A DNA stretch of 64,000 bases from Kiritimatiellia bacterium (GCA_024405265.1 JAKSOZ010000001.1:27263-91262), one strand, 5' to 3'; positions 10,785 through 59,299 are shown, numbered from the stretch's first letter. Numbers and translations: made by a program. The notes: a model not told the origin generated them from the sequence alone.

Positions 10785-10835
10785 GAAGACGCTATCGCTT
10801 TCCCTTTGTTCGGTGGATGTGGTATAATATTCGGT

Positions 10836-12143: not shown

Positions 12144-12193
12144 CTTTCTTCCTTTCCATTCTTGCCGCGGAAGCGGCAAATTTGGTATAATAT
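12144..12193 (+). promoter_or_regulatory. portable promoter module copy 1: CTTTCTTCCTTTCCATTC-TTGCCGCGGAAGCGGCAA-ATTTGGTATAATAT
   Basis: near-identical copies at 26547-26598 and 59300-59350; contains perfect hairpin TTGCCGC/GCGGCAA in -35 position and extended -10. Confidence 0.6.
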
Positions 12194-12204
12194 AAATCTA
12201 AAAA

Positions 12205-13213: not shown

Positions 13214-13258
13214 GGCGAAAAGTCAATTCTAGTGTTTTATAAAACGTTAGAATTGACT
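13214..13258. promoter_or_regulatory. 40-bp AT-rich palindrome AGTCAATTCTA-N-TTTTATAAAAC-N-TAGAATTGACT (copy 1 of 3)
   Basis: near-identical copies at 14093-14137 and 14163-14207 flank the two-wHTH regulator gene. Confidence 0.55.
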
Positions 13259-13275: not shown

Positions 13276-14070
13276 TTATGCCTCTTCTTCGTCAGGGGAG
13301 GGTGGTTGAGTGTCCGGGGCGGGTTTGGGTTTGATGATGACAGGGCCGGTTTCTCGCCAATTTTGCCGCGGATTGCCTTCCGCGCGATTGACTTTTTTGA
13401 GGACGGCCTTCGTCTCTTTGTCGGTCGCGCGCCCCGTACCTTCGTTGTAGTAATACGCATGACTCGCCGCGTTGCCAAGCGTCAGATCGAGTAAAGTTGC
13501 GGCGATTTTGTCAGTGGGCCTCACGAGCTCGAAAGTTGAGGGGCCGTGATATGTGCGCGTTTCGTGGATGAGTCCCGCAGCTTGCAAAAAGCCGAGATGA
13601 TGATAAATCGACTTCACGCAAACTCCCATCGCAGCGTAAAGTTCGTTCAAATATGCCGGGCCTTGGGCGAGGCGAATCAGAATCGCCAGGCGGTTAAAGT
13701 GAGTGAAGGCGCGAAGGGTGGTCATGATCGACTCTTCCCACTTGGGCGGCAGCTCCGCGGCAAAATAGGTGGCGAAGGCTTTTTGGAGTTCGATCGAATC
13801 GGGAAGCGAGCGGTCCTGCTCGTCATTGTAGTAGACTTTGATGCGATCTCGCTTTACGCCGATGAGACCGCGTGCATTCAGTTGACGGAGAGAAATACTC
13901 GCGGTGGCATCGGAAATGCTGAGGATGCGGGCATAGTCTCGCACGCAAAGTGCGCCTTCATTTTGAATGGCGAGGCGAAGCACATTGAGTCTTGTCGCGT
14001 TCATCAACGCGCGGCAGGTGCGCCATAAAGTCGGCTTCAGTTTTTTCTCATCGTTCATGATGAAAATCAT
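13276..14070 (-). CDS. transcriptional regulator with two tandem ArsR/SmtB-like winged-HTH domains
   Basis: two repeats of the ArsR-type HTH pattern (RLNVLRLAIQNEGALCVRDYARILSIS... and FNRLAILIRLAQGPAYLNELYAAMGV...). Confidence 0.55.
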   Translation of the reverse strand: MIFIMNDEKKLKPTLWRTCRALMNATRLNVLRLAIQNEGALCVRDYARILSISDATASISLRQLNARGLIGVKRDRIKVYYNDEQDRSLPDSIELQKAFATYFAAELPPKWEESIMTTLRAFTHFNRLAILIRLAQGPAYLNELYAAMGVCVKSIYHHLGFLQAAGLIHETRTYHGPSTFELVRPTDKIAATLLDLTLGNAASHAYYYNEGTGRATDKETKAVLKKVNRAEGNPRQNWRETGPVIIKPKPAPDTQPPSPDEEEA

Positions 14071-14092
14071 TCTACCATATTACCGGTCGAGA

Positions 14093-14207
14093 AGTCAATT
14101 CTAAAGTTTTATAAAACATTAGAATCGACTTCGGGAAAGAGGAGATGGGCAAATACGGTTGACAGATTCTAAAGTTTTTAAAAACGTTAGAATCGACTTC
14201 GGAGGAG
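14093..14207. promoter_or_regulatory. two further copies of the 40-bp palindrome upstream of the regulator gene
   Basis: 14093-14137 and 14163-14207, read directly. Confidence 0.55.
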
Positions 14208-15732: not shown

Positions 15733-17790
15733 ATGAATAATATAGCTGAAATTCTTAAGAAATCGTCTTCCCACGGTTTGGAACTTTTTAGCGCGGAAGA
15801 AATAGCTTGGCTTGAAGACCGAATTGAAATCAAGAAAACCAAAACAGGCGAGGGCTATTATACTAATTGCTATGTGCGCAACAAGAGCATCAAGGTGACG
15901 CCGGAGGAGGTTGTGCGTCAGCTCTACGCGCATCGCTTGGTCGAAGAGTATGGATATGATATCGGAAGACTCGCCTTTGAGTTTCCGGTGTTCTTTGGAC
16001 GAGAGGCGAAGAGAGCCGATATAGTCGTTCGCGATAAAGAGGATTTGAATGTCCCGTACATTATCGTCGAGACGAAGAAGCCGAAAGCCAAAGACGGACG
16101 TGAGCAGCTGAAGAGTTACACGCATGCAACCGGCGCGAGTATGGCCGTCTGGACGAACGGCACGACTATAACCTATCATCAACGCAAGAACCCCAATTTC
16201 TTCGAGGATATCCCCGAGATTCCGACCGCCGACAAGACCTTGGGAGACATTCTTAGTAAGAAGTTCACGATTAAAGATCTTATCGAGCAAGACAAACTCA
16301 CGAAGACGGGTAAATCGCTTAAAGATCTGATTCTAGAAATGGAAGATGAAGTCTTGGCGAATGCCGGAGTGGACGTCTTTGAGGAAGTCTTTAAACTAGT
16401 CTTTGCAAAGCTCTACGATGAGAAGCGAGGCGCGAGATATCCGGAGAATGATCTGGAATTTCGCAACTCCGGGCAGAGTGATATTCAGCTTAAGGACAAG
16501 ATTGAGAAGTTGTTTAAAAAGGCGTGCAACGAGTGGCCGGGCGTCTTTCCGGAGGATGCCAAAATCAACTTGACTCCGCCGCATCTGTCGATCTGTATCG
16601 CTTCATTGGAAACCGTCAAGCTCTTTAATTCTAACCTCGACGTTGTTGATGAGGCTTTCGAGTATCTGATCAACAAGAGCAGTAAGGGTGAGAAGGGACA
16701 GTACTTTACGCCGCGTTATGTGATTGATATGTGCGTGCGGATGTTGAATCCCAAGCCGACCGAGAAGATGATTGATACAGCGGCGGGCAGTTCGGGATTC
16801 CCTGTGCATACGATCTTTCATGTTTGGAAGCAAATGCAATTGGCGGCACACAAGCCGATCAGCCATTTATTTACCGCTACTGATAAAGGTGAAGAGGAAA
16901 CGGATTATGTCCGCAATAATGTCTTCGCCATTGACTTTGACGAAAAAGCCGTGCGCGTTGCACGAACCTTGAATTTGATTGCCGGTGATGGACATACGAA
17001 TGTCTTGCATTTAAATACGCTTGACTTTGGTCGATGGAACTCGACGACCAAGGAAGAAGCTTGGGTAGATACCTATAATGAGGGTTGGAAGAAGCTTAAG
17101 AAGCTTGAACGAGATTCCTCTCACACCTATTTCGAGTTTGATATCGTCATGGCAAATCCGCCTTTTGCCGGAGAGGTCAAAGAAGGTCAGATTCTCTCTC
17201 GGTACGAGTTCGGACAGAAGAACGGTAAGCCGCAGCATAGCGTTAATAGAGACATCCTTTTTATCGAGCGGAATATCAAGTTTCTGGGAGCCGGCGGTCG
17301 AATGGCCATAGTCCTTCCGCAGGGACGATTTAATAATTCGACTGATAAGTATATTCGTGACTACATTGCTAAGCAATGTCGTATTTTGGCGGTAGTCGGC
17401 ATTCACGGAAATACGTTTAAGCCGCACACCGGCACAAAGACGAGTGTCTTGTTCGTTCAGAAGTGGCAACCCGATCCGAGGCAGCCGAACTATAACCCCG
17501 TGCGCGAAGATTATCCCATTTTCTTCGCGACTCAGCGATTGGAAGGTAAGAACTCTCGCGGCGACAAGTTGTATTGGAACAAGGATAAATCCGGCACGAC
17601 AACGGACCCCAAGCTGGCTCTGTGCGATATACATGGTCACCCAGTTATCTATCATGATCTTTTTGCAACTTATGACTATAAGTGGAATGAAGAGAAGAAT
17701 GATAATGAAGAAGTTAGGCTTACGCCTGATGGAATTGCAGAGGCGTTTGCACAATTTGCGGCAAAGGAGAAACTGAGTTTTTTTCGCTAA
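15733..17790 (+). CDS. restriction-modification enzyme: N-terminal HsdR_N-like PD-(D/E)xK nuclease domain fused to N6-adenine DNA methyltransferase (BcgI-A-like)
   Basis: DIVV...IIVETKKP (D...ExK) nuclease motif near N-terminus; MTase motif I-like region and catalytic NPPF (ANPPFAG); 685 aa. Confidence 0.65.
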   Translation: MNNIAEILKKSSSHGLELFSAEEIAWLEDRIEIKKTKTGEGYYTNCYVRNKSIKVTPEEVVRQLYAHRLVEEYGYDIGRLAFEFPVFFGREAKRADIVVRDKEDLNVPYIIVETKKPKAKDGREQLKSYTHATGASMAVWTNGTTITYHQRKNPNFFEDIPEIPTADKTLGDILSKKFTIKDLIEQDKLTKTGKSLKDLILEMEDEVLANAGVDVFEEVFKLVFAKLYDEKRGARYPENDLEFRNSGQSDIQLKDKIEKLFKKACNEWPGVFPEDAKINLTPPHLSICIASLETVKLFNSNLDVVDEAFEYLINKSSKGEKGQYFTPRYVIDMCVRMLNPKPTEKMIDTAAGSSGFPVHTIFHVWKQMQLAAHKPISHLFTATDKGEEETDYVRNNVFAIDFDEKAVRVARTLNLIAGDGHTNVLHLNTLDFGRWNSTTKEEAWVDTYNEGWKKLKKLERDSSHTYFEFDIVMANPPFAGEVKEGQILSRYEFGQKNGKPQHSVNRDILFIERNIKFLGAGGRMAIVLPQGRFNNSTDKYIRDYIAKQCRILAVVGIHGNTFKPHTGTKTSVLFVQKWQPDPRQPNYNPVREDYPIFFATQRLEGKNSRGDKLYWNKDKSGTTTDPKLALCDIHGHPVIYHDLFATYDYKWNEEKNDNEEVRLTPDGIAEAFAQFAAKEKLSFFR

Positions 17791-17822
17791 CCCCCTTTGA
17801 CGAGACGAAGTACGAGTCTCTG

Positions 17823-19232
17823 TTGGAGGGGTTGGAGATTTGCGAGGTGTTGCTCTCGGATGTTCGAGGCGAGGATGAGTCTTTTCGCTTTGACTCTGAA
17901 TTCTTTAGAAAGGATGACATTAATCGCCTTCGACAGCTCGGTTTGTTGTCACACTCTTCGTTGATTGAGCTAAGTCGTAGAATCGATGTGGGGTATGTTG
18001 GGGAGATGACAAGCGAATATACCACTGATGCAACAGCTCCGAAGTTGATTCAGACTCGAAATATTGATGAATTTATACCAAATGACACTGACATAATTCA
18101 TATCAGTCAAGAATTCCATGAACAGTTGCGGAAAAGCCAAATTCATACGAATGATATTCTGTTGGCGCGAAGCGGCTCTTTTGGAAATGCGGCAATCTGG
18201 CTTGACAAGGAGACGGTTAATTCGTCCGATATTATTATTATAGACGTTGATCCGAGTAAGATCGATCCGTGTTACCTGGTGGCCTTTTTGAATTCTCGGT
18301 ATGGTAGATTTCAGTTGGATCGTTATGCAAGTGGGGCGGTTCAAAGACATGTTAACTTGACTATACTTGAGCGGCTTAATATTGCGTTGTTGTCAGAAGA
18401 CGTCAGATCTTTTGTTGGGTCTTTGGTGCGTCAGGCTTTCAAAACGATAACTGACTCGCGCGCCTGTTATCGCGCTGCCGAGGATAAGTTGCTAAAGGAC
18501 CTTGGTTTCTTAAATTGGTCACCTGTAGACGGAGGAGTTTCTGTTAAACCGTTTTCGGAGGTGGCTAATGCATGCCGTATAGACGCGGAGTACTTTCAGC
18601 CGAAGTTTGATGAACTGAAGCAGTTGCTCGCGCAATGTGAGTTGCGTGACTTGGGTGGTAATGAAGGGTTGGTAAATATCTATAAATCGATAGATCCCCC
18701 GAGTGATTGCTATGGAAGCGAAGGTGTGCCATTTGTGCGTATTTCTGATTTCTCGAAGTTTGGCATAGAGATACCGGATATAAGAGTTTCGGAAGAAGTA
18801 TGTAGCGATTGCCGCCGCATAAAGAAGAATGCGATTCTTCTTACGAAAGACGGTAGTGTGGGCATTGCGTACAAAGCGGAGTGTGATCTTGAGATGGTAA
18901 CATCTGGAGCCATTCTTCATTTGGAAGTAAAAGACGATTCTGTTGATCCTGATTATCTCGCGTTAGTTCTTAATTCTCGCATTGTCAGAATGCAGGCGGA
19001 GCGCGATGCCGGCGGATCGATTATTCAGCATTGGAAACCTTCACAGATAGAGAAAGTTCAGATTCCGATCTTGCCGCGAGGTGTTCAACATGCTCTTGCG
19101 GATAAAGTGCGCGAGTCTTTTCGCCTTCGTCACGAAAGCAAGCGGCTTCTGAATCTTGCCAAATCTGCTGTCGAGAAGGCAATAGAAGATGGCGAAGAGG
19201 CTGCTGTAAAATTTATTGAGGAGGGTGTGTAA
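17823..19232 (+). CDS. restriction-modification specificity (S) subunit with two target-recognition domains
   Basis: two-TRD architecture with central and C-terminal conserved helices typical of HsdS; apparent TTG start, so the true start is uncertain. Confidence 0.6.
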   Translation: MEGLEICEVLLSDVRGEDESFRFDSEFFRKDDINRLRQLGLLSHSSLIELSRRIDVGYVGEMTSEYTTDATAPKLIQTRNIDEFIPNDTDIIHISQEFHEQLRKSQIHTNDILLARSGSFGNAAIWLDKETVNSSDIIIIDVDPSKIDPCYLVAFLNSRYGRFQLDRYASGAVQRHVNLTILERLNIALLSEDVRSFVGSLVRQAFKTITDSRACYRAAEDKLLKDLGFLNWSPVDGGVSVKPFSEVANACRIDAEYFQPKFDELKQLLAQCELRDLGGNEGLVNIYKSIDPPSDCYGSEGVPFVRISDFSKFGIEIPDIRVSEEVCSDCRRIKKNAILLTKDGSVGIAYKAECDLEMVTSGAILHLEVKDDSVDPDYLALVLNSRIVRMQAERDAGGSIIQHWKPSQIEKVQIPILPRGVQHALADKVRESFRLRHESKRLLNLAKSAVEKAIEDGEEAAVKFIEEGV

Positions 19233-20035
19233 TGGCAAAGGCAAAAGTCCCTGCGGCATATTATGTGCGCGAATGGTACGAGAAGTCTGAGATTGATTAT
19301 TTCAGCGCTTTTGTAAAGGCCTATATCCCGTTTAATGCTTGGATGAATGATCATTTTAAAGGTGAGGCAACAGATCGTGCCATGCTTGAGCGGGTAAAGA
19401 GCGATGCGAATACATTTCGACAAAAGATACTTACTCTGCTTGAACTTGAAGATACGGCTGGCTATGAGTTCCGTGGAGCGATAGGATCGTTGCACGGAGC
19501 ATTAGAAGAGTCTACTGTTGCAAATAGCGGAGAGAAGATATCGTTTCAGAATGTAGTTATCTGTAAGAATTCTATTACGAATGTTAATCAGTCGTATCAT
19601 GGGTTGCAATATAGCGCAAAATATGATCAGTCGACGGGTGCGACTACTGTTGAAGTTAAAGAAAATAAGTCCGGAAAGATCTTGGTGGCGTTGTCGGAAC
19701 CCGGGTATCCGACCGAAGATACCGTTATAAAAAATCCTAGTGTTAATGCCTTGAACCAGAGCCGACTGGATTACTTGTTGGGTGTTTATCGACAGGTAAA
19801 TCCTAGGAAGGAAGAATCGTTGCTATATCAAGGTCGGAAGAAGAAAGAAGGGATAGTTTGTGGTGCATATAAAATGATAAAAGAAGAAAAGAAGCTGGCA
19901 GCTGGTCTTATTGAAATTTTATACAGTCTGCGAAATGCTTTATTTCATGGCGTTATTGATCCGAACAAAGATGCGAATAAGGTCTACGGCGCGGCATATC
20001 GGATTATGCATACATTGGTCGGAGCATTGACATGA
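19232..20035 (+). CDS. hypothetical protein co-transcribed with the RM genes
   Basis: ATG overlaps S-subunit stop (TAATG); no motif. Confidence 0.45.
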   Translation: MAKAKVPAAYYVREWYEKSEIDYFSAFVKAYIPFNAWMNDHFKGEATDRAMLERVKSDANTFRQKILTLLELEDTAGYEFRGAIGSLHGALEESTVANSGEKISFQNVVICKNSITNVNQSYHGLQYSAKYDQSTGATTVEVKENKSGKILVALSEPGYPTEDTVIKNPSVNALNQSRLDYLLGVYRQVNPRKEESLLYQGRKKKEGIVCGAYKMIKEEKKLAAGLIEILYSLRNALFHGVIDPNKDANKVYGAAYRIMHTLVGALT

Positions 20036-20195
20036 ACGATTCGGGGTTTGATGAGTAAAAACAATAAGGGGTAATTAATGACTGCCAACCGTCGGATATT
20101 CCTGAACATATTGCCACATGCGGGTGTTCTCTGTATGCGTTGGCAAGTTGTTTTGGACGGCGATAGGTGCGGAATGTGCGGAATTTTGGTATAAT

Positions 20196-20345
20196 ATGAA
20201 GCGTAATTTGAGTGTGAGAATGAGACAGAATCGACTTGGGCGTGGTGTCCGGCGCGGACGCGACGGCGAAGGGTCTTTGCGTCGTTCGCGCGATACCTAT
20301 GCTCTCCGTCCTATGCACTGGGGCTTGTCTCTCCTGGGTTTATAA
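20196..20345 (+). promoter_or_regulatory. conserved ~150-nt transcribed leader following TGGTATAAT (copy 1)
   Basis: nucleotide homology to 24941-25075 that does not preserve a reading frame; shares GCACTGGGG(C/T) motif also at 27078-27098. Confidence 0.4.
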
Positions 20346-20360
20346 ACTTGACATAAGCAA

Positions 20361-21410
20361 ATGACAAAGCGGCAACATTACGTTCAGCAAGCATACCTAG
20401 AACAATGGTGTGTGGGAGGCCGATTTGCTGTTAGGATCAATGGACGTTTGTTGGAGAATCAGACTCCGTTGAATTATGCGAATGAAAGTTGGTTCTATGC
20501 TTTTGTCGATCTTTCGACTCGTGAGTTGGATTATCTCTTTCGATCATTGATGCAAGTGTTTGATTTTGACAGGCACGAACTTGCGCGGAAGATGTTTGGC
20601 GCGATTTGTTTGAATGTTCTAAGGTTTCGATGCGAGAAATCGGACTACAGTTCGGAATACGATGAGGTTTACAGCAAGATCGTTTCAGGCATCAAATTTG
20701 GCGATGAATGGGAAAAGATGTTTGCTTTTCTAAAGAAAGGCGCACAAAGAAGTGATCTCATAAGCCCGATTGAACTTGCACGATTGAAGGATCAGGCATC
20801 CGAAGGATTTGAGTCGTTTCAGTGTAACATTGAAGAAGTTGCGGCTCCGTATTTCAAGATGGCACGAGCTGGCAGCTTGTCGTTCATGAAGGACAAAGCT
20901 TCGGCGCATGCGTTGATTCTGTATTTGGTCAATCAGGCTTTTCGCGGTCCGGATTATTTGAAGGTGATAGACAAGAACCTGCCTGAAAGTATTCGAGAAG
21001 CAGGAGGGAGCGTGGAACTTGGCAAGTATATGCGGTATTTTCAGCCGATGCTTGTGGCTGCTAAGCTTGCGAGGGAGTCTGAAGAACGCAAAATGATGGT
21101 GATAAACAATGCCACTAATGTAGATTTTATTACCGGAGATGTTCCTTTGGTGATATATGGCGAACGACACTCGAATGTCCCCTGTATTATTTACTATCCT
21201 CTAACACCGCGCAAGGGATTACTTTACGGATTTAGGAGTGCGGTGAATGATTTCAACAAGAAATTTACTTCGACGCTACGTCGCGTTGACAAAGTTGATT
21301 GGTTTAATCGAGAGATCATAGCCTCGAGTATGCGAGCTGTTTTTGCGATGAAAAAAGAGACGCTACAGCATTACGGCACTGATAAGCCGCAGTGTCTGGA
21401 TCACCAATAA
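20361..21410 (+). CDS. DUF4238 domain protein
   Basis: N-terminal KRQHYVQQAYLEQW resembles the HxVPQxYLxxF signature of DUF4238. Confidence 0.55.
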   Translation: MTKRQHYVQQAYLEQWCVGGRFAVRINGRLLENQTPLNYANESWFYAFVDLSTRELDYLFRSLMQVFDFDRHELARKMFGAICLNVLRFRCEKSDYSSEYDEVYSKIVSGIKFGDEWEKMFAFLKKGAQRSDLISPIELARLKDQASEGFESFQCNIEEVAAPYFKMARAGSLSFMKDKASAHALILYLVNQAFRGPDYLKVIDKNLPESIREAGGSVELGKYMRYFQPMLVAAKLARESEERKMMVINNATNVDFITGDVPLVIYGERHSNVPCIIYYPLTPRKGLLYGFRSAVNDFNKKFTSTLRRVDKVDWFNREIIASSMRAVFAMKKETLQHYGTDKPQCLDHQ

Positions 21411-21844
21411 GAGGGATTGAATATGGAACGAAAGCATTATTACACTGACGAGCGGAATACGCAGATTGTTATTGCGTTGCTGAAGACGTATGGGATATTT
21501 CGGTTTGGTCGGAGAGAGGGGTATTCTAGGTGACCGCAAACAAGCGCATATTCTTTAACATCATTGCCACATACGGCCGATTGCGGCCTTCGGCTATTTC
21601 CGCTTCGCTCCAATCCGGGTATGCGTTGGTGATTTTTGCGGCAGGAATAAAAAGATTGCCGCATCTATTCAAATTTTGGCAAATCTGATATAATATTGCG
21701 TAGAAAATGAGTAAGACGATTACTATCGATCGCCATTGGACGCGGTGTAGATTTGCGCACCTCGTAGCGAGAGCTTTGCGCGCGGCGAACATCAACTCTA
21801 CACCTACGCCTTATTTCTACACCTAATTTACGGAGTAAATTCTT

Positions 21845-22600
21845 ATGATCAAAGTCGGTATTATCGGTTGTGGATTTGTCGGGGGCGCGCTGAAGGCGTG
21901 GCTCGAAGAGAATAACAAGGACGCGGTCATTCGCGTCAGCGATCCGCCGAAGGGGTTCAATGACGACCTCTCGGACATTGACATCGCGTTCTTGCAGATT
22001 CACGTGCCGACCGAGGACGACGGTACTCAGGATTTGACGCTCATGAAGGAACTGATTCGCAAGCTGCCGAACGTTCCGGTCTTCGTCCGTACGACGATTC
22101 TCCCGGGCACCTCGGACCTCCTCTCGCGCGAGACGGGTCATCAGGTCTGCTACATGCCGGAGTTCTTGACCGAGCGCACACACATCGAGGACTTCAAAAA
22201 GCAGACGATGGTCTTTACCGGCGCTGTCGATCTTCTGATCAAGGTCTTCCCGTCGAAGAAGTTTACGGTCATGTCCCCGCTTGAGGCCGAGATCACGAAG
22301 TATTCCCACAACGTCTTCGGCGCGTACAAGGTGACATACTTCAACGCCGTACGCGAGTACTGTGAGAAGATGGGCGCGGACTGGGCAAAGGTCCACACGG
22401 GCTGCCTCCTCTCCGGCTACATTAACGACACCCACACCTACGTCCCCGGTCCGGACGGCAAGTTCGGTTATGGCGGCAAGTGCTTCCCGAAGGACGTCAA
22501 CGCCTTTGCGAAGCTCACCGAAGACTGCTCGCTCGGTAAGCTCCTCGCTCCGCTCCATGACCTCAACGTCCACTTCCGTGGATTTGAAGAGCATATATAA
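21845..22600 (+). CDS. short UDP-glucose/GDP-mannose dehydrogenase-family protein
   Basis: N-terminal GIIGCGFVGG Rossmann motif and catalytic GGKCFPKD motif; only about 251 aa. Confidence 0.55.
   Translation: MIKVGIIGCGFVGGALKAWLEENNKDAVIRVSDPPKGFNDDLSDIDIAFLQIHVPTEDDGTQDLTLMKELIRKLPNVPVFVRTTILPGTSDLLSRETGHQVCYMPEFLTERTHIEDFKKQTMVFTGAVDLLIKVFPSKKFTVMSPLEAEITKYSHNVFGAYKVTYFNAVREYCEKMGADWAKVHTGCLLSGYINDTHTYVPGPDGKFGYGGKCFPKDVNAFAKLTEDCSLGKLLAPLHDLNVHFRGFEEHI
22541..22600 (+). repeat. direct repeat A (3' end of dehydrogenase gene), repeated at 25075-25133
   Basis: CTCCTCGC(T/C)CCGCT(C/T)CA(T/C)GA(C/A)CTCAACGTCCACTTCCGTGGATTTGA(A/G)GAGCATAT present twice. Confidence 0.8.
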
Positions 22601-22616
22601 AATTGGATTGAGAAGT

Positions 22617-24689
22617 ATGGGATCAAACGATAGCATTGTCTTAGATGGGATTCTCTCTGATCGACAAAATGCCGAAGGTTTGCCGACTGGTGAAGTTTTT
22701 GAAAAGTTCGCATTTGAGCAGATTCTTAAAGAATAGGCATTAACGGCAAATCAACTTGATCAAGGTTGGGTTGATGGCGGCGGTGATGGTGGAATTGATG
22801 GTTTTTATGTCATTATTAATGGTTATGTGTATGGGGGAGATGCTGGTTTTCAATGGCCGCGTGAGAATCCTCATATTTCAGTATGGATTTTGATATGTAA
22901 GCATAGAGAAGGTTTTATAGAGTCTCCTCTGGCGTCAATGTATATGACGCTAAGTGAGTTCTTTGATTGCACAAAATCGAATCAAGAGTTGCACGGCGAT
23001 TATTCAGAAGATTTATTAGAGGCAAGGACGATCTTTCTTCAAGCATATAATACGTTGGCTAGGCTAGATCCTTTGATTGATGTTCGCTTTGCCTATGCTA
23101 GCCGTGGTGATGCAACTAATGTCTCTGATGCCGTGGCTGGAAGAATGCAGCAACTCGAGTCTTTGGTGAGTGAGAAATTCAGCAAGGCTACTGTTTGTAG
23201 TAGTTTTGTCGGAGCGAAGGAATTACTACAGTTGTATCGGAAAGTTAGAGATGATGATTTTGTGTTGCCGTTTGTGTCGTCTTTGACGCATGATGAGAAT
23301 AATTACGTTGTAATTGCGACTCTTCGTGATTATTATAATTTTGTAAAAGATGACGAAGGCAAGTTAAGACGTTATCTATTTGACTCTAATGTTCGAGATT
23401 TCTTGGGATACAATAATGTAAATGGAGATATTGATTACACTCTAAAGAATCCCAGTGTAGCGAATTTTTGGTGGTTAAATAATGGAATCACAATTTTGGC
23501 AAATAATGCCCATGTCACAGGGCATAGCCTTCATTTGAGAACTGTTCAAATTGTCAATGGACTTCAGACAACAGAAACCTTATATCGGCACTTTGCGGGA
23601 GGAAATGTTGAGTCGTTAGACAAGAACATTCTCATAAAAATCCTTACATCGCAGGATGTTGATGTTAGGACAAATATCATTCAGGCGACTAATAACCAGA
23701 GTAACGTAATGAGTTATTCTTTGCATGCTACGGATGATGTTCAACGTAATATAGAAGATGTGTTGCGCCGCGAGAATTTCTATTATGAACGACGCGATCA
23801 TTATTATAAAAACGAGGGGATGCCTGAAGATCGCTCGATAACTCCTCTTGAATTGGCGAAGTGTTTCCTTGCTGTCGTATACTTAAATCCTGCAATAGCA
23901 TCGAAGCTGAAGAATAAATTTATGCGCAATTCGCTGTCGTACAATGCAGTCTTCAACTCTGATTTCCCTATTGATAAGTGGCCTTTTCTGGCGGCACTGT
24001 GGCTTGATGCGGGGAAAGTCTTTCGACAGGTCTACCTCAAAAAATTTGGTGATATATTGCATCCTTGGCGGCCTTTGGTGGCGTATTGTGTTGTAGCGAG
24101 AATGTTTGGTAAGCTTAATTTCTCGCTAAAAAATATTGTGACTCTCAAATTAAAGGATCTGCGCGCAGATTTGATTAGTGAGGTGTGGGAGTTTGTTGCG
24201 CCGTTTATGACAAAGTTCGAGGCATCGTCAAGGAATAAACTTAAGAAGCCACATCAAGTATATAACGTTGTCATTAAAGAGTTCGCTATGAAATATAACT
24301 TGAACGGTGTGGAGGCAGTAAATAGACGGATTCTCCAAAGGGTTGATCAATTGCCAACTCAAGGCGTTGAATTGACTGAAGATTTTATAGAGCGGGTTCG
24401 TTTGCTTTTGCCTGCTCAACCATGGAAACCTGGGATGTATCGGGATTTGTGTGCAAGATTGCAGGTTCGGCCGTCTTGCGTTTATGAAGCAATAGATGTG
24501 CTAATTGATCGCGGTATCGTACATGAGCAGAAGAATGGTGTCGTGTATGATGAAGCCGGGAATGTATTAATGGTGGATCCAACAAGGTGTAGGTTTACTG
24601 TCGCGGAGTTGAATGCGGATATTGCAAGAAGGGGGCGAGAGCATTCTTCGATTATGAAGCCTTTGCGTAAAGAGCCTCTTGTAAAATGA
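22617..24689 (+). pseudogene. AIPR (abortive-infection phage-resistance) family protein interrupted by in-frame TAG at 22734-22736
   Basis: N-terminal VDGGGDGGIDGFY and central NFWWLNNGITI...QIVNGLQTT AIPR signatures; the ORF before the TAG (FEKFAFEQILKE*) is in the same frame. Confidence 0.6.
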
Positions 24690-24928
24690 ACCAAAACAAG
24701 CGCATATTCCAAAGCGAGATAGCGACCTGTGCCAGACCGTTGTTTGCGGTTGTATACGGCGGTTAACATGAATATGACCCTTACACTTTACATTCGGTCG
24801 TGGAGGGACTTCGCTAAGGTTGTGAAGCTCCTTTCGGGCGAGGATTGGATGTTTCGGGGGCAGCGCGATAGTAATCGCCTCTTGCGGATAGGTTTAAACT
24901 AGACACTAATGTTGCTGAATTTGGTATA

Positions 24929-25133
24929 ATATATTGGGTGTAAGATGAATGTGAGAACGAGACAGAATCGACGTGGTTGTGGAGTATCGCGAGTACTCGA
25001 CGGAGAAAGGGCTTGGTTTCAATCGTCCAATCCTATGCACGCATCTTATGCATCGAGGCCTGTCCCCCTTGAACTCCTCGCCCCGCTTCACGAACTCAAC
25101 GTCCACTTCCGTGGATTTGAGGAGCATATTTGA
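24929..25133 (+). promoter_or_regulatory. leader copy 2 fused to duplicate of dehydrogenase 3' end (chimeric junction)
   Basis: 24914-25075 homologous to 20181-20330; 25075-25133 homologous to 22541-22600. Confidence 0.5.
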
Positions 25134-26465
25134 TGTCTGCAAAGTTCGTATCATTGGGGGATGTTGATGCGGCATCCAAACCGTCCTTATGGTCTCCAGA
25201 GGATGACGAGGTACGCGTTAAATTATCTAGCACGATGGTTAGCTTTGTGTCGGCTCAGACAATGCCGCTTACGATTGGCTTGGATGGAGTATGGGGTAGT
25301 GGCAAAACCTATTTCTTGCGTCGGTTTGAGACTGACTATGCGAATTCGGCTGGTTCTGGGGCATGCATTTATCTAAACGCGTGGGAGCGGGATTTTCTCC
25401 ACGATCCTTTACTATATCTTTTCTACGGGTTAGATGAATTCGTTACGCGAAATCCAGACTATGCCTCGATTGATGACTTTAGTTGGGATGTGTGCAAGAA
25501 GAATCTTGTGGCTATTGCGAAGGGTAGCTTATCGGCCGTATTGCACGTTGCAACTAATGGCGCATCAGACAAAGTTATGGAAGGGATTGATGCGTGCTCA
25601 AATTCGATAGACAAACATCCGCTTAGCTTGTATCGCGAACAAACGCATTCAGTCGATACAATTAAAGGGTACCTAACAAAACTTGGTAATAAGGTACGTG
25701 AATCAACTGAACATAGTCTTTGTTCTTGGCCTAGATTTTGTTCAACTTGGGAAATCAATTCAGTCATTGTACGGGGAGATTGATACCGGGAATTATCTTC
25801 ATCGAATGATACAGTATCGATTCTCTCTGAGTGCTCTTCCGATTGACATGTTTGTCAGGACGATAGCAGAGCGAGATGCGATAAACACGCTTGTTTGGAA
25901 GTCGAAACCTAGATATCCTAATGAGCCGACATCAAATGATACTTTGGCGTTCAAGGTGTTCTGCTGGTTTGCCAAATTCTACGGGATATCTCTTCGTCAG
26001 ATTGAGCGGGCTATCGGGTTTTATCGAATGTCTGTAGTGTCTCCTCATCAATCCTCTTTGGCGATGGCGGTTTTTGCTATGACAAGTGTTTTGAAGGTAC
26101 ATGGGAATGGACTTGATAAGTTGCTGGTCGATGTTTCTGCAGAGGAATCTATAGTAGCCGATATACTTGACGAAAAAGGTTCTTCGAATAAACAAGATAG
26201 CAGTTGCATAAGGGAATTCCTGACTTATCTGATTAAAGCCTCCCGATGCACCGGCAGTGAGTCGGCAGAAAGGTTATATGGGGAATATCGTTCGCGCTAT
26301 CAGTTGTCTAAAGCGCGGCAGCCTGTCGATGATGCCTTTGGTCCGATGACCGTAGAGCTTTTGCTTAGGGCGTTTTATGCAGAGTTTGATAATGAATACA
26401 TTGATTTTGGAGATTCTCTCGTTAATATTGCAACGAGATGCATAAATTTGCAATGTGTCGTGTGA
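25133..26465 (+). pseudogene. KAP-family P-loop NTPase with frameshift near 25690-25715
   Basis: Walker A GLDGVWGSGKTYFL; ORFs 25130..25783 and 25683..26465 overlap by 100 nt in different frames. Confidence 0.5.
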
Positions 26466-26546
26466 TTATATAGGCTTCTCGAATACAATGGAGAAACCTT
26501 GCTGCGCGGTGTGATCATCTCTCCGACCGTAAGAGCGGCGGAATCA

Positions 26547-26598
26547 AACTTTCTTCCTTTCCATTCTTGCCGCAGAAGCGGGAAATATGGTATAATAT
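26547..26598 (+). promoter_or_regulatory. portable promoter module copy 2 (palindrome variant TTGCCGCAGAAGCGGGAA)
   Basis: aligned by eye with 12144-12193. Confidence 0.55.
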
Positions 26599-26620
26599 CT
26601 ATGTAGAAACGAGGTGCGAA

Positions 26621-27025
26621 ATGGAAGAAAGAAAACTGTATAACGAATGCGCTAATTGCTGGTGCTTCAAGAATAAACGGTGTGATGGCCGCTACCATAA
26701 TGTCGAGGAAATCAAGGCTGAAGATGGCTCGATCATTGAGTCGAGTTCTTTCTCGCTTGGCGATATGAATTGTGAGTGGCCTGGTGACGGGGAATGCGCG
26801 AAGCGTCTTGTTACGGTTGAAGATGGGTGTATCTATCTCAACTATGCCGACCAATATCCGATTCGCATGCTTTCCACTTTCACTAAGAACGAGATGGCTG
26901 AGTTTATGGTTCATCTTACGGGGAAGACCTGGTACTCGATCTTTCTTCAGCGTGTGTTTGTGCGCCGTGTGTTTGAATTAAAGGGTTGGTCGCCAACGAT
27001 TGAGCTTGACATTTCGCGAATGTGA
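26621..27025 (+). CDS. Cys-rich hypothetical protein
   Basis: 134 aa, CxxC pairs near N-terminus; GAGG 9 nt upstream of ATG. Confidence 0.45.
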   Translation: MEERKLYNECANCWCFKNKRCDGRYHNVEEIKAEDGSIIESSSFSLGDMNCEWPGDGECAKRLVTVEDGCIYLNYADQYPIRMLSTFTKNEMAEFMVHLTGKTWYSIFLQRVFVRRVFELKGWSPTIELDISRM

Positions 27026-27134
27026 GCAGAAACGCATGGACGGAGACTAGGAGGATTTGTATCATTTGCGAGATCCCTCGCACTGGGGTCTATCGCTTAC
27101 GAATTCTATTTTTGATGCTGAGGTGTAGCAGTGG

Positions 27135-28844
27135 ATGAGCCGAAGAAAACTATCAAAGAATAAGCAGGCGGCTATTGATAAACGTTTGCTTAACGGGGCT
27201 CGGGGCAAGCTTGTGTCTTGCCTTGCACGCATTTTGCCGCAAGCAGAGAAGCTTCTGAAAAAGCCAATTAAGGAGACGCCTATTCATGACGTTTGGCTTG
27301 AACGAGAGGCGAACGAGAAGTCAACACTCGCAACGCTGCATGAAGCGTTAAGGCGTAAGCCCGTCATACAACCGCCGAAATGGGGCTTTAATCTTCAGAA
27401 GGTTGCATTGCCGGATAAAGGGGTTGTGAAGAGGTCGTATTTCTCAGGTTTGAAATGGCCGATTCTAGAACAGGCATCTGAACACGTTATTCACCTGAAA
27501 TCTGGATCGATTGGAGTGCTGGTGGTTGATCTTCGAGCAGAATCATCAGATTACCAGAGGTATACATTTGTGCGACTCACGGAAAAGAAGTCGACTTTGA
27601 TGTTGATACCAGAAGGTTGTGCATTTGCCTATTATGGACTTGCCCGATTCTCAAAGATTGAGCTCCGTGGTCGTAGTAAGGGAGAATTTCAGTTTCTAAA
27701 GGCTCTTGATGTCCTTGATCCTTCCCTAGGGATTGATCGAATAGACGGGGTGCCTACGAAAGTGTTGAATGATAATCGAAAGAGTTTCGCAAGATTCGAG
27801 ACGTTGACGCCTTGGGACTCGCGAATCAGCCATCGGGTGCTGACGCGCGGCGAACGAATGATTATTAACGCGATGGATGTCGCGAGTGATCGCGAGTATC
27901 AGATTAAACCCAAGGGGGTTGAATTTGTTTTTGATGAGTCTTGCGACCGTGGAGTGTTGCATGTTCGTGAGTATTCGGCTTTTATTCAAGTCCTCGGTAA
28001 GTTGAAATATTTATTTGCTGGCGCTGATAAGGCGCGCGGTGCAAGAATGGGAATCGCTTTCCGAGGGCAGGTTATGGGATATGGAGATCATATGATACCA
28101 TCTCTGTATCGGGGCGTTAAGACAGATAAAGAACGGAAGCGGCGTGAAAGCCATCTTTCGGAGAAGATCAAACGAGCGGTGGGGTATTTTGACCAGCTCA
28201 AGAAGTTGGATGATAGCGTTGTCGAGGCGTTGTTTCAGCAGTATGGGGTTGATACGAGTTGGATTGATGCTGTTGATAATGTGTGGATCGCTCTTTGGTT
28301 TGCTTGCCATCGAGCGGAATGTTGTCTTCAGGGGCGCTCGGTTCATTACGTGCGCCGCGATCCAAACAAAGAGTGTCCAAACGTTAGATATGCGTATATT
28401 GTGGTGTTTGGATACCCAGATTCGGTGTTGTCAGGAACCCGTAAATCTAGGCTCGGCCCTGGTCATGTTTTGAAAGACGGAGTTGAGTATATAGATCTCC
28501 GTCTGGCGGTGCCGTCTCAATTTGTACGTCCCCATGCGCAGCACGGGCTTATGCTAAGGCAATATTCGGATAAAAGGGAGCCGAAAACTGATTACCGAGA
28601 GTTGGTGCAGGCAATCATTCGTATTGATTTAGTGGATGCTCTTCGATGGTTGGGGTCCGGTGAGGCCGTTTCATTTGGGGCTTTGTTTCCACCGCCAGTA
28701 CACGACGCTGGTTTCCAAGGACTTCTTCGGATGGAGGATAGGACAAAGCTTAAGCACTCCGATATGTATTCCGAACTTAAGGTAAAAGAAGCTGGTGGGG
28801 AACATGAGTATAAGTCATTAAGTTTTCAGAGGTTTGATATATAG
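27135..28844 (+). CDS. FRG-domain protein
   Basis: FRGQ...IPSLYR signature about residue 300; 569 aa. Confidence 0.55.
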   Translation: MSRRKLSKNKQAAIDKRLLNGARGKLVSCLARILPQAEKLLKKPIKETPIHDVWLEREANEKSTLATLHEALRRKPVIQPPKWGFNLQKVALPDKGVVKRSYFSGLKWPILEQASEHVIHLKSGSIGVLVVDLRAESSDYQRYTFVRLTEKKSTLMLIPEGCAFAYYGLARFSKIELRGRSKGEFQFLKALDVLDPSLGIDRIDGVPTKVLNDNRKSFARFETLTPWDSRISHRVLTRGERMIINAMDVASDREYQIKPKGVEFVFDESCDRGVLHVREYSAFIQVLGKLKYLFAGADKARGARMGIAFRGQVMGYGDHMIPSLYRGVKTDKERKRRESHLSEKIKRAVGYFDQLKKLDDSVVEALFQQYGVDTSWIDAVDNVWIALWFACHRAECCLQGRSVHYVRRDPNKECPNVRYAYIVVFGYPDSVLSGTRKSRLGPGHVLKDGVEYIDLRLAVPSQFVRPHAQHGLMLRQYSDKREPKTDYRELVQAIIRIDLVDALRWLGSGEAVSFGALFPPPVHDAGFQGLLRMEDRTKLKHSDMYSELKVKEAGGEHEYKSLSFQRFDI

Positions 28845-28876
28845 GAGTAGCTTCGGCGCAGTTCAATGTATAGCTT

Positions 28877-30217
28877 ATGAGACGCAAAGATTTATTTTCA
28901 TTTGGCAATACGCCGGCGGAGCGCTCGGCGGCGCGGTTGTTGTTTTTGATAGGTCTAGGCTCGTCTACTCAGATTAACATCGGTGGGTATACGGCGATTT
29001 CGGAACTGCTGCTTGTTCTCTATATGCCGATTGCGATGGCGAAGAATTGGGGGCTGTTTAGGCGCGATCGGTGCACGGCAATTTTGTGGTTGCTTATCAT
29101 CTGGGGCTTAGGGCAGTTGGCAACGGATTTGTCGATTGGAAATTATTTTGCGTTCATGATTCGCGGATTGATCCCTCCTGTAGGCATCTTTGCTGCATTG
29201 ATTACAGTATATCCTTTGCTCAAGCGTAACCCAGATGGGCTCAAATGGATCCTTCTGGGGACGGCTATCTCAGGTGTTGTCTCTATCTTTGTCTTTCAGC
29301 ATGGTTCAGATATTGACACCGCAGAGGTGCGGTCAGGTGCGATGTCTGTATCAGAAGCTGTTATGGGGTATAAGTTATTCTGGGTTGGAAAGTTGAATGA
29401 GTGGCTCGCGCTACCAGTTAAAGGCTGGTATATGCATATGCCGCATGGGGGGAATGTTGTAATTGCAGCGTTTCTTGCAGTATTCGGTCTTGCTTCTGGA
29501 GGGCGATCCGCATTTCTTGTTTGTATGGTATCAACGTTGCTGTTGATGTTTGGAGGAAAGTCGAGTCGCAAAATGAGGTGGCTTAAGAAGAGTTGGCCGA
29601 TTCTGGTTGGACTTTTGATAGTATTAATTCCAATAGTTAAATTTACCTATCAATTTGCGGCTAGTAGTGGATGGATGGGGGAGGAAGAATTAGCAAAGTA
29701 TGAGGAACAATCAAAAGGTAAGAGTGGCTTAGAGACACTGATGGCAGGCAGGGCTGAGTTTTTTATCGCGCTTTCTGCTATTAAAGACAAACCATTGTTT
29801 GGACATGGGTCGCATGCTCTGGATACAGCTGGATATAAGCTAAATTTTTTCATTAAGTATGGCGCGGACGAAGAAACTTTGAAGAGAATTCAAGGAGTAG
29901 AAAAGATCTCAGGAGTTCGTACAATTCCAGCTCATTCGCATATTGCCGAGTTTTGGATGTGGGCGGGAATTCCTGGCCTTCTGCCATGGATATATATCCT
30001 CGTATTGCTGGGAAAGACTTTATTTAAAAGAATGCATATTTATCCGCCTTATTATGGATATTTCGCCCTAATCATCCCGTCGATGTTTTGGCATATCTTC
30101 TTCTCGCCGTTCGGTAGCCGCATTAATATGGCCGTGATGATTGCTGCTTGTTTGGTCGTGCAGACCATGGAGCGAGAGCAGAGACGGACGAACGGATTTA
30201 TAGCAAAGGCATGGTAA
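28877..30217 (+). CDS. O-antigen ligase/polymerase-like (Wzy/WaaL family) integral membrane protein
   Basis: about 10 TM helices with large periplasmic loop near C-terminus; context in a glycan cluster. Confidence 0.5.
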   Translation: MRRKDLFSFGNTPAERSAARLLFLIGLGSSTQINIGGYTAISELLLVLYMPIAMAKNWGLFRRDRCTAILWLLIIWGLGQLATDLSIGNYFAFMIRGLIPPVGIFAALITVYPLLKRNPDGLKWILLGTAISGVVSIFVFQHGSDIDTAEVRSGAMSVSEAVMGYKLFWVGKLNEWLALPVKGWYMHMPHGGNVVIAAFLAVFGLASGGRSAFLVCMVSTLLLMFGGKSSRKMRWLKKSWPILVGLLIVLIPIVKFTYQFAASSGWMGEEELAKYEEQSKGKSGLETLMAGRAEFFIALSAIKDKPLFGHGSHALDTAGYKLNFFIKYGADEETLKRIQGVEKISGVRTIPAHSHIAEFWMWAGIPGLLPWIYILVLLGKTLFKRMHIYPPYYGYFALIIPSMFWHIFFSPFGSRINMAVMIAACLVVQTMEREQRRTNGFIAKAW

Positions 30218-30221
30218 GATA

Positions 30222-31457
30222 ATGAAAGTCATTCTTTCAACAGGACATGGGCGACTTCATCTTGTGCAATCAGCAACTTGGTTGCGTAAGTTGGGGTTGA
30301 ATGTTAGAGTTTTAACGGGATGGATTCCGAAACATCCGGATGGATTACTAGTTAAGTTGGCCTCGAAAATTGTTCGTCGCGATTTAACTTCCGGGATGAA
30401 GAAGCGCCTTGTTCCCGAACTTGAAGGATGTGTTAGGACATGTCCTTTAGCGGAGTCTCTTGACACTCTTTTGCGAGTAGCATGTCGAATCTTAAAGATA
30501 TCTACCCATCGAGTGTCTTCGATAGGCTGGACAATCTTCGGCCTTGCGAGTCGCAAGTATCTAAAGGATGCAGACATCTTTCATTGCCGTTCAGGTGCAG
30601 GACAGGGTGGTGCGATTAAACTCGCACGGAACCGTGGGATGAAGATTTTGGTTGATCACAGTTGCCTTCATCCGGCTAAATGCGAGGAGAATCTCAAGGA
30701 TGACTACGCGCGTTGGGGGCAGGAGATTGTCATTGCTCCCGGTCGAGGCGTTTGGAAGAACGTACTTAAAGATTGCGAAGATGCTGATATGATTATGGTC
30801 AATGCGAATCATATTCGTGATTCGTTTGTTGAGCAGGGGTACGCGCCGGAGAAGGTTAGAGTTGTTTATTTGGGTGTACGGGAAGATTTTCAGGGCGTGA
30901 AGAAGAACTACGCGAGCCATGGAACTTTTAGGGTTCTTTTTACAGGTGGATTTATTATTCTTAAAGGCGCGGAGTATCTTCTCGAGTCGCTTAAGATATT
31001 GAAAGAACGTGGGGTTGATGTTGCGTATGATGTGATCGGCTCGGTCGGTGCTCCAAAAGCATTGCTCGAAAAGTATAGCAATCTTCCGTTTAAATTTTAT
31101 GGTGTTTTACCGCAAGATAATTTGAAGTCTCATCTCGCAAATGCGGATGCGTATCTCTTCCCTTCACTTGCCGATGGTTGCGCACAAAGCGGAATGGAAG
31201 CATTAACGGCGGGTCTTCCGGTTGTGGCGACTTATCAAAGCGGGCTTCCGATAACGGATGGTGAGAATGGATGTGTGGTGCCGATGAAGGATGCCATGGC
31301 AATTGCCGATAAAATCGAGTGGTTGATTGCACATCCAGAAGAGCGAGAGAGGTTGGGTAAGTCTGCTGCAAAGATGATGAGAGAAAAATATACATGGCGG
31401 CATTATGCGGAGAATGTTCGAGACCTCTACGAGGAACTTGTAGAGAGTGGGAGTTGA
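30222..31457 (+). CDS. glycosyltransferase family 4 (GT-B, group 1)
   Basis: C-terminal pattern FPSLADGCAQSGMEALTAGLPVV typical of GT4 (ExxxxxxE variant). Confidence 0.65.
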   Translation: MKVILSTGHGRLHLVQSATWLRKLGLNVRVLTGWIPKHPDGLLVKLASKIVRRDLTSGMKKRLVPELEGCVRTCPLAESLDTLLRVACRILKISTHRVSSIGWTIFGLASRKYLKDADIFHCRSGAGQGGAIKLARNRGMKILVDHSCLHPAKCEENLKDDYARWGQEIVIAPGRGVWKNVLKDCEDADMIMVNANHIRDSFVEQGYAPEKVRVVYLGVREDFQGVKKNYASHGTFRVLFTGGFIILKGAEYLLESLKILKERGVDVAYDVIGSVGAPKALLEKYSNLPFKFYGVLPQDNLKSHLANADAYLFPSLADGCAQSGMEALTAGLPVVATYQSGLPITDGENGCVVPMKDAMAIADKIEWLIAHPEERERLGKSAAKMMREKYTWRHYAENVRDLYEELVESGS

Positions 31458-31479
31458 AAGTTGGAGTGGGAGAATGGTG

Positions 31480-32547
31480 AAGAAACATTATTATTTGTTA
31501 GACGTGCTAAGAGCACTGGAAATGCTCGCAGTGGTAAGGGGCCATTATCGTAATGTGCTTTTCCCTTCATGGAGCGAGGTTGCGCATTCCTCAAGAGGGG
31601 GGGGGGTACAGCTCCTCTATGCCCTTACGAGGTGGGGGCACAGCGCTGTTATCGTCTTCTTTGTGTTGAGTGGATTTTTGGTCGGAGGTAAATCAATCGA
31701 GAGGGCCATGCGAAATCAGTTTGACATAATCGGATACGCAAAGAATCGATGCGAGCGGATTTTCCCTCCGCTTGCATTGATGTGCTTTCTTGTGCCGGTT
31801 ACGTTTCTTAGCCTTGGCGTTCCTGTACCGTGGGGTTCGGTTTTGGGTAATCTTTTTTCTTTGCAAGGACTTTGCTGCCAGTCGTTGCTCGGCCCTTGGT
31901 GGGCGCTTTCGGTTGAAGTCTGGTTCTATGTTTGGTGTGGCGCGGCGTTAGGTGCATGGCGTGCGAAGGGGGGGCTCCGATTCCTATGCGCTGGGATCCT
32001 GGCGCTAATGAGCTTCATCTTCATTCGTGGATCGATTTGGTTCTTGCTAATATGGCTACTCGGCGCGGCAACTTATTTCGTTTTGCCGCGGACGAAGAAT
32101 ATCTGGCGATTGCTGGGATCGTTTGTCGCCTGCGCGGCGCTTGCAGTCGTTGGCTCGCGAACAACAACAAACGCTCAAATTGCTGATTTCTTTTTAGGGG
32201 TTGGCTTGTGCTTGATTGTTCGCGAGGTCGTGATGTGGGAGCCGAGCGGCTTAATTTCCAGGACGGCAAATAAGCTCGGAACGTGGTTGTCTGCTCCGTC
32301 GTATTCGATTTATCTTTCTCATATGCTGGTTATGATTGTCTTTGCGAACCTGTTCTTAACTCCAGCGGCAAGTGCGACTGTGGATCGTGAGTATATGGTT
32401 CAAGAAGGAATCCTTGCTGCATTTACGAAGGTCGGTGCACTTGAAATCGGTGCATTGATTGGTTCGTTGGTGCTTGCAATTGTTTTCGGTTATCTCGTGT
32501 ATCTTGTTGCGGAAAAGCCTTGGTGGAAAAGGCGAGTGGAAGTCTGA
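31480..32547 (+). CDS. acyltransferase family 3 (O-acyltransferase) membrane protein; contains G11 tract at 31593-31603
   Basis: N-terminal LDVLRALEMLAVV and multi-TM architecture of the OafA/acyltransferase_3 family; homopolymer read directly. Confidence 0.6.
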   Translation, partial: KKHYYLLDVLRALEMLAVVRGHYRNVLFPSWSEVAHSSRGGGVQLLYALTRWGHSAVIVFFVLSGFLVGGKSIERAMRNQFDIIGYAKNRCERIFPPLALMCFLVPVTFLSLGVPVPWGSVLGNLFSLQGLCCQSLLGPWWALSVEVWFYVWCGAALGAWRAKGGLRFLCAGILALMSFIFIRGSIWFLLIWLLGAATYFVLPRTKNIWRLLGSFVACAALAVVGSRTTTNAQIADFFLGVGLCLIVREVVMWEPSGLISRTANKLGTWLSAPSYSIYLSHMLVMIVFANLFLTPAASATVDREYMVQEGILAAFTKVGALEIGALIGSLVLAIVFGYLVYLVAEKPWWKRRVEV

Positions 32548-59291: not shown

Positions 59292-59299
59292 GGCATAAG

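Follow-up and report, generated by a model that had tools for sequence, protein, structure and literature searches.

How did an abortive-infection gene come to lie between two copies of the same gene end, with two copies of the same leader nearby? This question is raised by positions 20,036 to 26,465 of a 64-kb stretch of DNA (the whole stretch that was analysed, hereafter the window) from a rumen or gut Kiritimatiellia metagenome-assembled genome (MAG). In this part of the window, a gene resembling UDP-glucose/GDP-mannose dehydrogenases (the UGDH-like gene) is followed by an abortive-infection gene of the AIPR/AbiU type and then by a KAP-family NTPase gene, and a DUF4238 gene lies upstream. 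The initial annotation had taken the duplicated leaders and gene ends for the borders of an inserted AIPR cassette. The present analysis points rather to an integrase-less recombination hotspot in a co-directional surface-glycan cluster, with decaying scars and reused promoter modules, a reading that is considered moderately probable.

The duplicated gene end and leader

The features on which the question turns are the following.

20187..20197, + strand: promoter 1, putative, an extended -10 box TGGTATAATAT (consensus match)
20198..20345, + strand: leader copy 1, non-coding 5' region ahead of the DUF4238 gene (blastn against copy 2)
20361..21410, + strand: DUF4238 gene, 349 aa, downstream of promoter/leader copy 1 (Pfam PF14022, E=6e-12)
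21845..22600, + strand: UGDH-like gene, complete, 251 aa (Pfam PF03721 and PF00984); its last 60 nt (22541-22600) are gene-end copy E1
22617..24689, + strand: AIPR/AbiU-type abortive-infection gene, 690 codons (Pfam AIPR, E=4e-37; PADLOC AbiU, E=1e-118)
24922..24932, + strand: promoter 3, putative, box TGGTATAATAT (consensus match)
24933..25073, + strand: leader copy 2 (repeat search and blastn)
25074..25133, + strand: E2, probable relic of a second UGDH-like gene, comprising the last 19 codons and the stop (E=4e-16 with an nhmmer profile of gene ends)
25133..26465, + strand: KAP-family P-loop NTPase gene, PADLOC candidate PDC-S20 (Pfam KAP_NTPase; ORFs, that is open reading frames, of 216 and 260 aa)

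Both repeats around AIPR are real, and the blastn self-comparison of the region places their similarity far beyond chance. The gene-end repeat (22541-22596 versus 25074-25129) is 91% identical (51/56; E=1e-17), 53 of 60 positions match once the stop codon is included, and one 26-mer of the gene end, for which 0 occurrences are expected in the window, has precisely two. The leader repeat was found by a repeat search of the window as a core of 95 nt with 73% identity (20194-20288 versus 24931-25025). It is extended by blastn, promoter included, to 20173-20329 versus 24908-25064 (72.5% over 160 nt, E=1e-15); the next-best match to the leader within the window has E=0.037 and is limited to the shared promoter box. 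The leader homology stops at about 20340 and 25073, respectively, and the two copies are about 27.5% diverged.

The second gene end is joined directly to the KAP gene, as had been noticed initially: the stop codon TGA of E2 (25131-25133) overlaps the KAP ATG (25133-25135), and E2 carries a GAGGAG ribosome-binding site. On the contrary, the 2.5-kb segment does not carry AIPR alone, since it also contains a relic of another gene (F3', 24686-24760, see below), some 150 nt to which no feature was assigned, and promoter 3 with leader copy 2. Nor do the duplicated leaders and gene ends act as borders of a cassette, because the two pairs of copies do not flank one common unit.

Origin of the repeated gene end

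E1 and E2 differ at seven of 60 positions, namely six sense-codon sites and one site in the stop codon. All six sense differences (6/6) fall on third codon positions, five being synonymous and one exchanging Asp for Glu; the chance of such a distribution is (1/3)^6 = 0.0014 by our own calculation. In addition, E2 is equally near to the genes of other species, with 53/60 matches to those of loci L041 and L035 and 53/60 to E1. Divergence at third positions only, together with equal closeness to other species, indicates that E2 evolved within a working gene. Judged from these comparisons, E2 is most probably the relic of a separately evolved UGDH-like gene and not a duplicate made upon AIPR insertion. 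A single AIPR cassette between insertion-linked repeats, as first proposed, does not fit the seven differences nor the similarity of E2 to genes of other species.

By our own calculation, the third-position divergence between E1 and E2 is 6/19 = 32%, near the 27.5% of the leader, which makes a common age of both pieces of copy 2 plausible. These two parts may thus be equally old and derive from one promoter-leader...UGDH-like unit that has lost its middle. A comparable join is seen in L041, where a 27-nt relic of a UGDH-like end runs directly into the ATG of a GHMP-kinase gene; the real UGDH-like gene of this locus lies 2.9 kb downstream. A blastx match to UGDH-like proteins at 24999-25130 rests on the last 20 residues only, and the extension of the homology into the leader was judged to be chance.

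The UGDH-like protein comprises the N-terminal and central UDP-glucose/GDP-mannose dehydrogenase domains only, the usual C-terminal domain being missing. It is not a truncated dehydrogenase, as 251 aa is the norm of the family: of 4137 homologues (E<=0.001), the 120 that were listed measure 250-322 aa, mostly 251-255 aa, with 80-91% identity. Identity reaches 95% in genome contigs, which come from rumen or gut Kiritimatiellia MAGs and also from Bacteroidales MAGs. The gene is present in most related genomes, often as two paralogues that are 73-85% identical at the nucleotide level. When the window is compared with 90 related loci, this gene alone shows nucleotide similarity, and across species its flanks share none. 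Its GC content is 56.6% versus 41-44% in the adjoining cargo genes.

As a separate observation, the UGDH-like protein is 82-95% identical across Kiritimatiellia and Bacteroidales MAGs (loci L014-L093).

Relics of a membrane-protein gene

In five related loci (L012, L016, L019, L027 and L049), the UGDH-like gene is directly followed by a gene for a hydrophobic membrane protein of about 519 aa, for which no Pfam or NCBIfam match was obtained. Three relics of the start of this gene were found in the window.

20078..20165, + strand: relic F1', the first ~25 codons, frameshifted (nhmmer with a profile of 7 real starts, E=4e-9)
21530..21583, + strand: relic F2', the first 17 codons (nhmmer, E=2e-7; blastp-short, E=1e-8 to the L012 N-terminus)
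24686..24760, + strand: relic F3', ~25 diverged codons of the gene start (nhmmer, E=0.04; blastp-short, E=0.001)

Each of them lies just after a cassette gene, namely a 267-aa gene (19232-20035), DUF4238 and AIPR, respectively. F1' starts 43 nt past the stop of the 267-aa gene and its peptide matches the N-termini of L012, L016 and L027. F3' is the weakest of the three and its ATG overlaps the AIPR stop (ATGA). Similar relics are present in L015 and L016 after P63C, DUF3990 and RhuM genes, and in L021 a relic of the same gene start is located 300 nt after the UGDH-like gene. The length of these relics ranges from 17 to more than 50 codons, which argues for illegitimate end points and not for a fixed site.

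Relics had also been suspected at 21420-21500 (start of a TPP enzyme) and at 24768-24900 (start of an FRG protein); both were dropped, being unsupported in Pfam and in the related loci.

Two observations stand beside these. In L016, two paralogous relics of about 200 nt (2085-2300 and 2990-3200) each follow an accessory gene (DUF3990 and RhuM, respectively), a cassette-like pattern parallel to that of the window. Elsewhere in the window, 22 codons from the start of a family-2 glycosyltransferase (GT2) gene remain as a relic behind a promoter box at 55680 and are 82% identical to the N-terminus of the L012 GT2; the relic immediately precedes the real GT2 gene at 55785, box and relic occupying 55680-55784.

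Leader and promoter modules

The differences between the leader copies are spread evenly over the codon positions in every frame, which indicates that the leader is non-coding. A small protein was discarded on the same ground, the 62-aa ORF of copy 2 having no Pfam match. The copies have conserved blocks in common, including an exact 14-mer GAGACAGAATCGAC with flanking TGTGAGAA; these 14 nt are the longest exact shared stretch. A known cis-regulatory RNA or riboswitch was equally set aside: no Rfam match to the leader was obtained at the gathering score nor at E<=1, and the fold energies are no better than those of shuffled sequences (z-scores of -0.46 for copy 1 and +0.54 for copy 2). One hairpin of the leader still pairs despite two double changes, an observation on two sequences that bears little weight.

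Searches outside the window gave no homologue of the leader. A 22-mer pattern had 0 matches in species-representative genome contigs (185,579 species genomes), a 20-mer pattern had 0 matches in IMG/VR and 7 in JGI metagenomes, all by chance and none extending, and about 100 related loci contained no match to an nhmmer profile. In the same way, the core motif is absent upstream of the UGDH-like genes in 85 related loci. The leader is read as a duplicated non-coding module, made of a promoter and a 5' untranslated region, that drives two different defence-type genes.

Two more promoter features complete the set.

21686..21696, + strand: promoter 2, putative, box TGATATAATAT, ahead of the UGDH-like gene; its 5' untranslated region is unrelated to the leader
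26542..26612, + strand: second promoter module, hairpin TTGCCGC-GAAG-GCGG and TGGTATAATAT (repeat search); closes this defence block

Extended -10 boxes of the type TGNTATAATAT were counted 11 times in the window, where 0.12 would be expected, and every one of them is on the + strand; they are putative promoters by their match to the consensus. The second promoter module, 60-70 nt in length, consists of a hairpin TTGCCGCGGAAGCGGCAA and then TGGTATAATAT and occurs in three copies with 81-86% identity. Besides the copy listed above, it is present at 12137-12207 and at 59294-59364 (blastn, E=5e-19 and E=1e-13), and each copy sits where a defence or accessory block borders glycan genes. The module is not present in any of the related loci. 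Its reuse at three block borders suggests that the reuse of promoter modules at joins is a general feature of the region.

Twin promoter boxes were also seen at 10511 and 10820 (10511-10900). Downstream of the 10511 box, Cys-rich repeats of the form C-x-YCGS-x-YG-x-GCYHSP-x-GKHE are encoded.

Cargo genes and their decay

The AIPR frame of 690 codons is interrupted by a single in-frame TAG (22734-22736, codon 40) and otherwise intact, full-length homologues being 676-689 aa long; the TAG is also found in a Logan contig (L103). Its closest homologues (69-71%) are located in type III restriction operons and not beside UGDH-like genes, and are uninformative for the present locus. In the window, AIPR stands between the stop of the UGDH-like gene and F3', the relic of the gene that follows the UGDH-like gene in relatives. 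It looks like an older placement within the operon, because its stop overlaps the ATG of this relic of the native downstream gene.

The KAP gene is split by a +1 frameshift near 25700-25780, the two ORFs matching positions 23-184 and 218-400 of the PDC-S20 profile. The split is also present in Logan contig L094. A homologue search for a KAP gene after a UGDH-like gene elsewhere returned no matches. Both AIPR and KAP are thus damaged, the former by a premature TAG and the latter by a frameshift, and much of this interval is scar tissue rather than a working device.

Gene context and mobility genes

The window as a whole is a co-directional glycan-biosynthesis region with defence genes interspersed, and nearly all of its long ORFs lie on the + strand. 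Its glycan run includes genes for family-1 glycosyltransferases (GT1), GT2, Wzy, acyltransferase and pyruvyl-transferase, and is broken up by no fewer than four defence or accessory blocks, at 4-10, 13-26.5, 40-55.5 and 59.7-62.7 kb. Mobility genes were sought by Pfam on likely-gene ORFs of at least 150 aa across the 64 kb. No integrase, recombinase or transposase was found among these scanned ORFs, and the Pfam scans of ORFs in the window found no reverse transcriptase.

The initial annotation had favoured recombination over transposition, with a cassette inserted by way of short shared sequences. The first part is in keeping with the lack of transposase and integrase genes among the scanned ORFs, of terminal inverted repeats and of short identical target duplications, and with the patchwork of gene-end and gene-start relics; the cassette itself has not stood. 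The insertion of a transposon or insertion sequence was discarded in parallel: besides the missing transposase and inverted repeats, the direct repeats measure 59 and 160 nt, with divergences of 12% and 27%. A Campbell-type duplicative insertion does not suit six sense differences that are all at third positions, nor an E2 that is as close to the genes of other species. A diversity-generating retroelement was rejected as well, as the differences (T/C, C/T, T/C, C/A, A/G, A/T) are not adenine-specific and no reverse transcriptase was found.

Contigs of the same or close strains

Exact-protein look-ups for a same-species comparison returned only short Logan/NCBI contigs, probably from the source sample; the four Logan contigs used here come from run SRR17543907. 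L095 corresponds to positions 17772-20251 of the window (100% identical) and extends beyond the core of leader copy 1 into the 3' part specific to that copy. L103 corresponds to 22484-24965 (100%) and L094 to 24974-31561 (99.95%). L001 corresponds to 20231-21476 (99.3%) and has the same leader-DUF4238 unit but is divergent after 21476, which means that at least one other strain has this unit in common with the window and differs downstream. In both leader copies there are contig breaks at the 14-nt core or beside it, within 20222-20251 (end of L095 at 20251, start of L001 at 20231) and 24959-24974 (end of L103 at 24965, start of L094 at 24974), respectively. These breaks are weak evidence, because Logan contigs, which are short, also stop at numerous other points (17772, 21476, 22484 and 31561).

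Proposed history and rival explanations

From these observations, we infer the following order of events and mechanism. Defence and accessory genes that bring along strong promoters of their own would have been stacked in the glycan cluster, and successive events of recombination, insertion and deletion would have left gene fragments behind. The UGDH-like gene would serve as the conserved anchor, at which homologous or homology-facilitated illegitimate recombination takes place. Copy 2 (24908-25133) would be what remains of a second, separately evolved promoter-leader...UGDH-like unit, with the last 59 nt of the second UGDH-like gene now directly behind the leader as a result of an internal deletion or an illegitimate join. 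The relic E2 would then supply a ribosome-binding site and a stop/start overlap to the downstream gene, which is now the KAP NTPase.

Several points weigh against this history. E2 is in frame with an open 62-codon ORF that begins in the leader, and present-day translation could in principle be the cause of the coding-type conservation of E2. Nothing outside the window speaks for the leader being native to a UGDH-like gene, because no leader-like sequence lies upstream of the UGDH-like genes of the 85 loci. The two additional suspected relics (21420-21500 and 24768-24900) have no support, and no independent contig covers the junction in leader copy 2 (24965-24974). Finally, no same-species genome with an alternative arrangement was recovered and no event was directly dated or polarised.

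The AIPR segment could instead have entered as one cassette via short shared sequences, for example as a single-crossover circle with a leader/gene-end chimera, the duplicated gene end being the product or the substrate of the event. The gene-end direct repeats do bracket a segment of 2533 nt, a recombination of these repeats would put KAP back behind the UGDH-like gene, with the TGATG overlap that relatives show, and no transposase is present among the scanned ORFs. Against this stand the seven differences in 60 positions, all at third-codon or stop positions, in an E2 that is no closer to E1 than to the genes of other species, as well as leader copies that are 27% diverged and do not bracket the same unit. 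Moreover, the relic of the native downstream gene with its stop/start overlap after AIPR is expected if AIPR was already in the operon, and the closest AIPR homologues belong to type III restriction operons. The cassette is therefore held to be improbable. An assembly artefact, in which the repeats stem from a chimeric join of strains in a metagenome-assembled contig, is suggested by the metagenomic source, by the strain variant L001 diverging at 21476 and by the join at 24965-24974 that no independent contig spans. It is hardly credible, since independent Logan contigs match 17772-20251, 22484-24965 and 24974-31561 at 99.95-100%, L095 runs through the core of leader copy 1 into its copy-specific part, a longest exact leader match of 14 nt is too short to mislead an assembler, and an assembler cannot create diverged relic sequences.

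Selection could also have kept the leader as a functional cis-regulatory RNA or a protein-binding 5' untranslated region of the DUF4238 and KAP genes. Its conserved blocks around the 14-mer, the hairpin whose pairing survives two double changes and the position of both copies right after strong promoter boxes and ahead of defence-type genes speak for such a role. This explanation is nevertheless unlikely: Rfam gives no match even at E<=1 and the fold z-scores are unremarkable, covariation from two sequences has almost no weight, no homologue turned up in the species genomes, JGI metagenomes, IMG/VR or related loci searched, and the KAP gene that would be regulated is frameshifted. Very unlikely is a site-specific cassette system in which the leader core or the membrane-gene-start element would be the recombination site, loosely like attC, and the recombinase would be encoded elsewhere. 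It would account for the same element following each of three cassette genes, for similar elements in three other species and for the contigs of SRR17543907 that break in both leader copies, at or by the 14-nt core. However, the element clearly represents the beginning of a protein-coding gene, whose amino-acid sequence is conserved, and it is cut variably between 17 and more than 50 codons with no symmetric structure, no recombinase was found among the scanned ORFs of the 64 kb, the cassettes have their own promoters unlike those of integrons, and short Logan contigs break at many places.

The integrase-less hotspot with decaying scars is an ordinary kind of genome hotspot and reveals no new mechanism. 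If this reading is true, one surface-glycan cluster in a poorly studied gut phylum serves as a landing pad for phage-defence genes without mobile-element machinery, which bears on the joint shuffling of glycan and defence diversity. It is also of use for the annotation of MAGs, in which relics, a premature stop and a frameshift would otherwise be mis-called as genes. A wider proposal, quite doubtful at present, is that gut Kiritimatiellia regularly stack co-directional defence genes in glycan operons, independently of a recombinase or with an unknown one, using as parts the UGDH-like end, the membrane-gene start and portable promoter modules. In that case, recombination might actively take place at the 14-nt leader core, and the contig breaks in both leaders would be accounted for.

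Relation to known systems

O-antigen and capsule loci are reshuffled via conserved flanking genes, such as galF/gnd together with JUMPStart in Enterobacteria and dexB/aliA in pneumococcus. Here too a conserved gene of the sugar-nucleotide type heads a variable glycan locus, and gene-end relics travel with the next gene, both in the window and in L041. The present locus differs in that its cargo consists mostly of defence genes and not of sugar genes, in its phylum and in being known from its sequence. Homology-facilitated illegitimate recombination during natural transformation, which de Vries and Wackernagel are said to have described in 2002, would explain one homologous anchor and relics of variable length without a recombinase gene. 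Against it, no microhomology is identifiable at the 25073/25074 joint.

Like integron cassettes, the units considered here are tandem, co-oriented and single-gene, with a recurring element after each gene. An integron array was nevertheless discarded. No IntI-type integrase was found among the scanned ORFs, and what recurs after the genes is not an attC hairpin but a coding relic, which corresponds to the start of the membrane-protein gene (17-50 codons) and has variable ends and no inverted repeats. In addition, integron cassettes are mostly promoterless, whereas separate TGNTATAATAT boxes are found here at 20187, 21686, 24922 and 26588.

Many hotspots of horizontal gene transfer are devoid of mobile elements and show raised homologous recombination in the flanking core genes, including the flank of the E. 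coli rfb (O-antigen) locus (Oliveira et al. 2017, PMC5635113). As in these hotspots, dense and fast-turning accessory genes are gathered at one chromosomal place with no recognisable mobile-element genes; the present locus shows such a concentration of accessory genes and no mobility genes among the scanned ORFs. Within the species, only one variant contig was found (L001, divergent at 21476), and across species the flanks of the UGDH-like gene are dissimilar. The strongly conserved adjoining gene could here be the homology arm. Unlike the hotspots of that study, the locus lies inside a glycan operon, its cargo is all co-oriented with its own promoters, its anchor gene is multi-copy, and it holds many partial gene relics, which are not left by clean double crossovers.

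The window also resembles core defence hotspots (Johnson et al. 2023, PMC10250203) in holding several unrelated defence genes between conserved host genes, namely a type I methylase with its specificity subunit, AbiU/AIPR, KAP/PDC-S20 and DUF4238. It differs from them in that two of its defence genes are damaged.

Other observations in the window

A single ORF of 569 aa at 27135-28844 combines an RmlC-like cupin region (dTDP-sugar isomerase) with an FRG domain (PADLOC candidate PDC-S15) and may be a fusion of a glycan gene with a defence gene. Three copies of a 43-nt palindromic repeat (13216-13258, 14088-14130 and 14156-14198) surround the gene of an ArsR-type regulator (13276-14070), which is the only clear minus-strand gene of the window, and these repeats look like operators. 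Inside the glycan run, short tandem repeats of the CATCAAAC type are present at 34323-34376 and 37177-37216.

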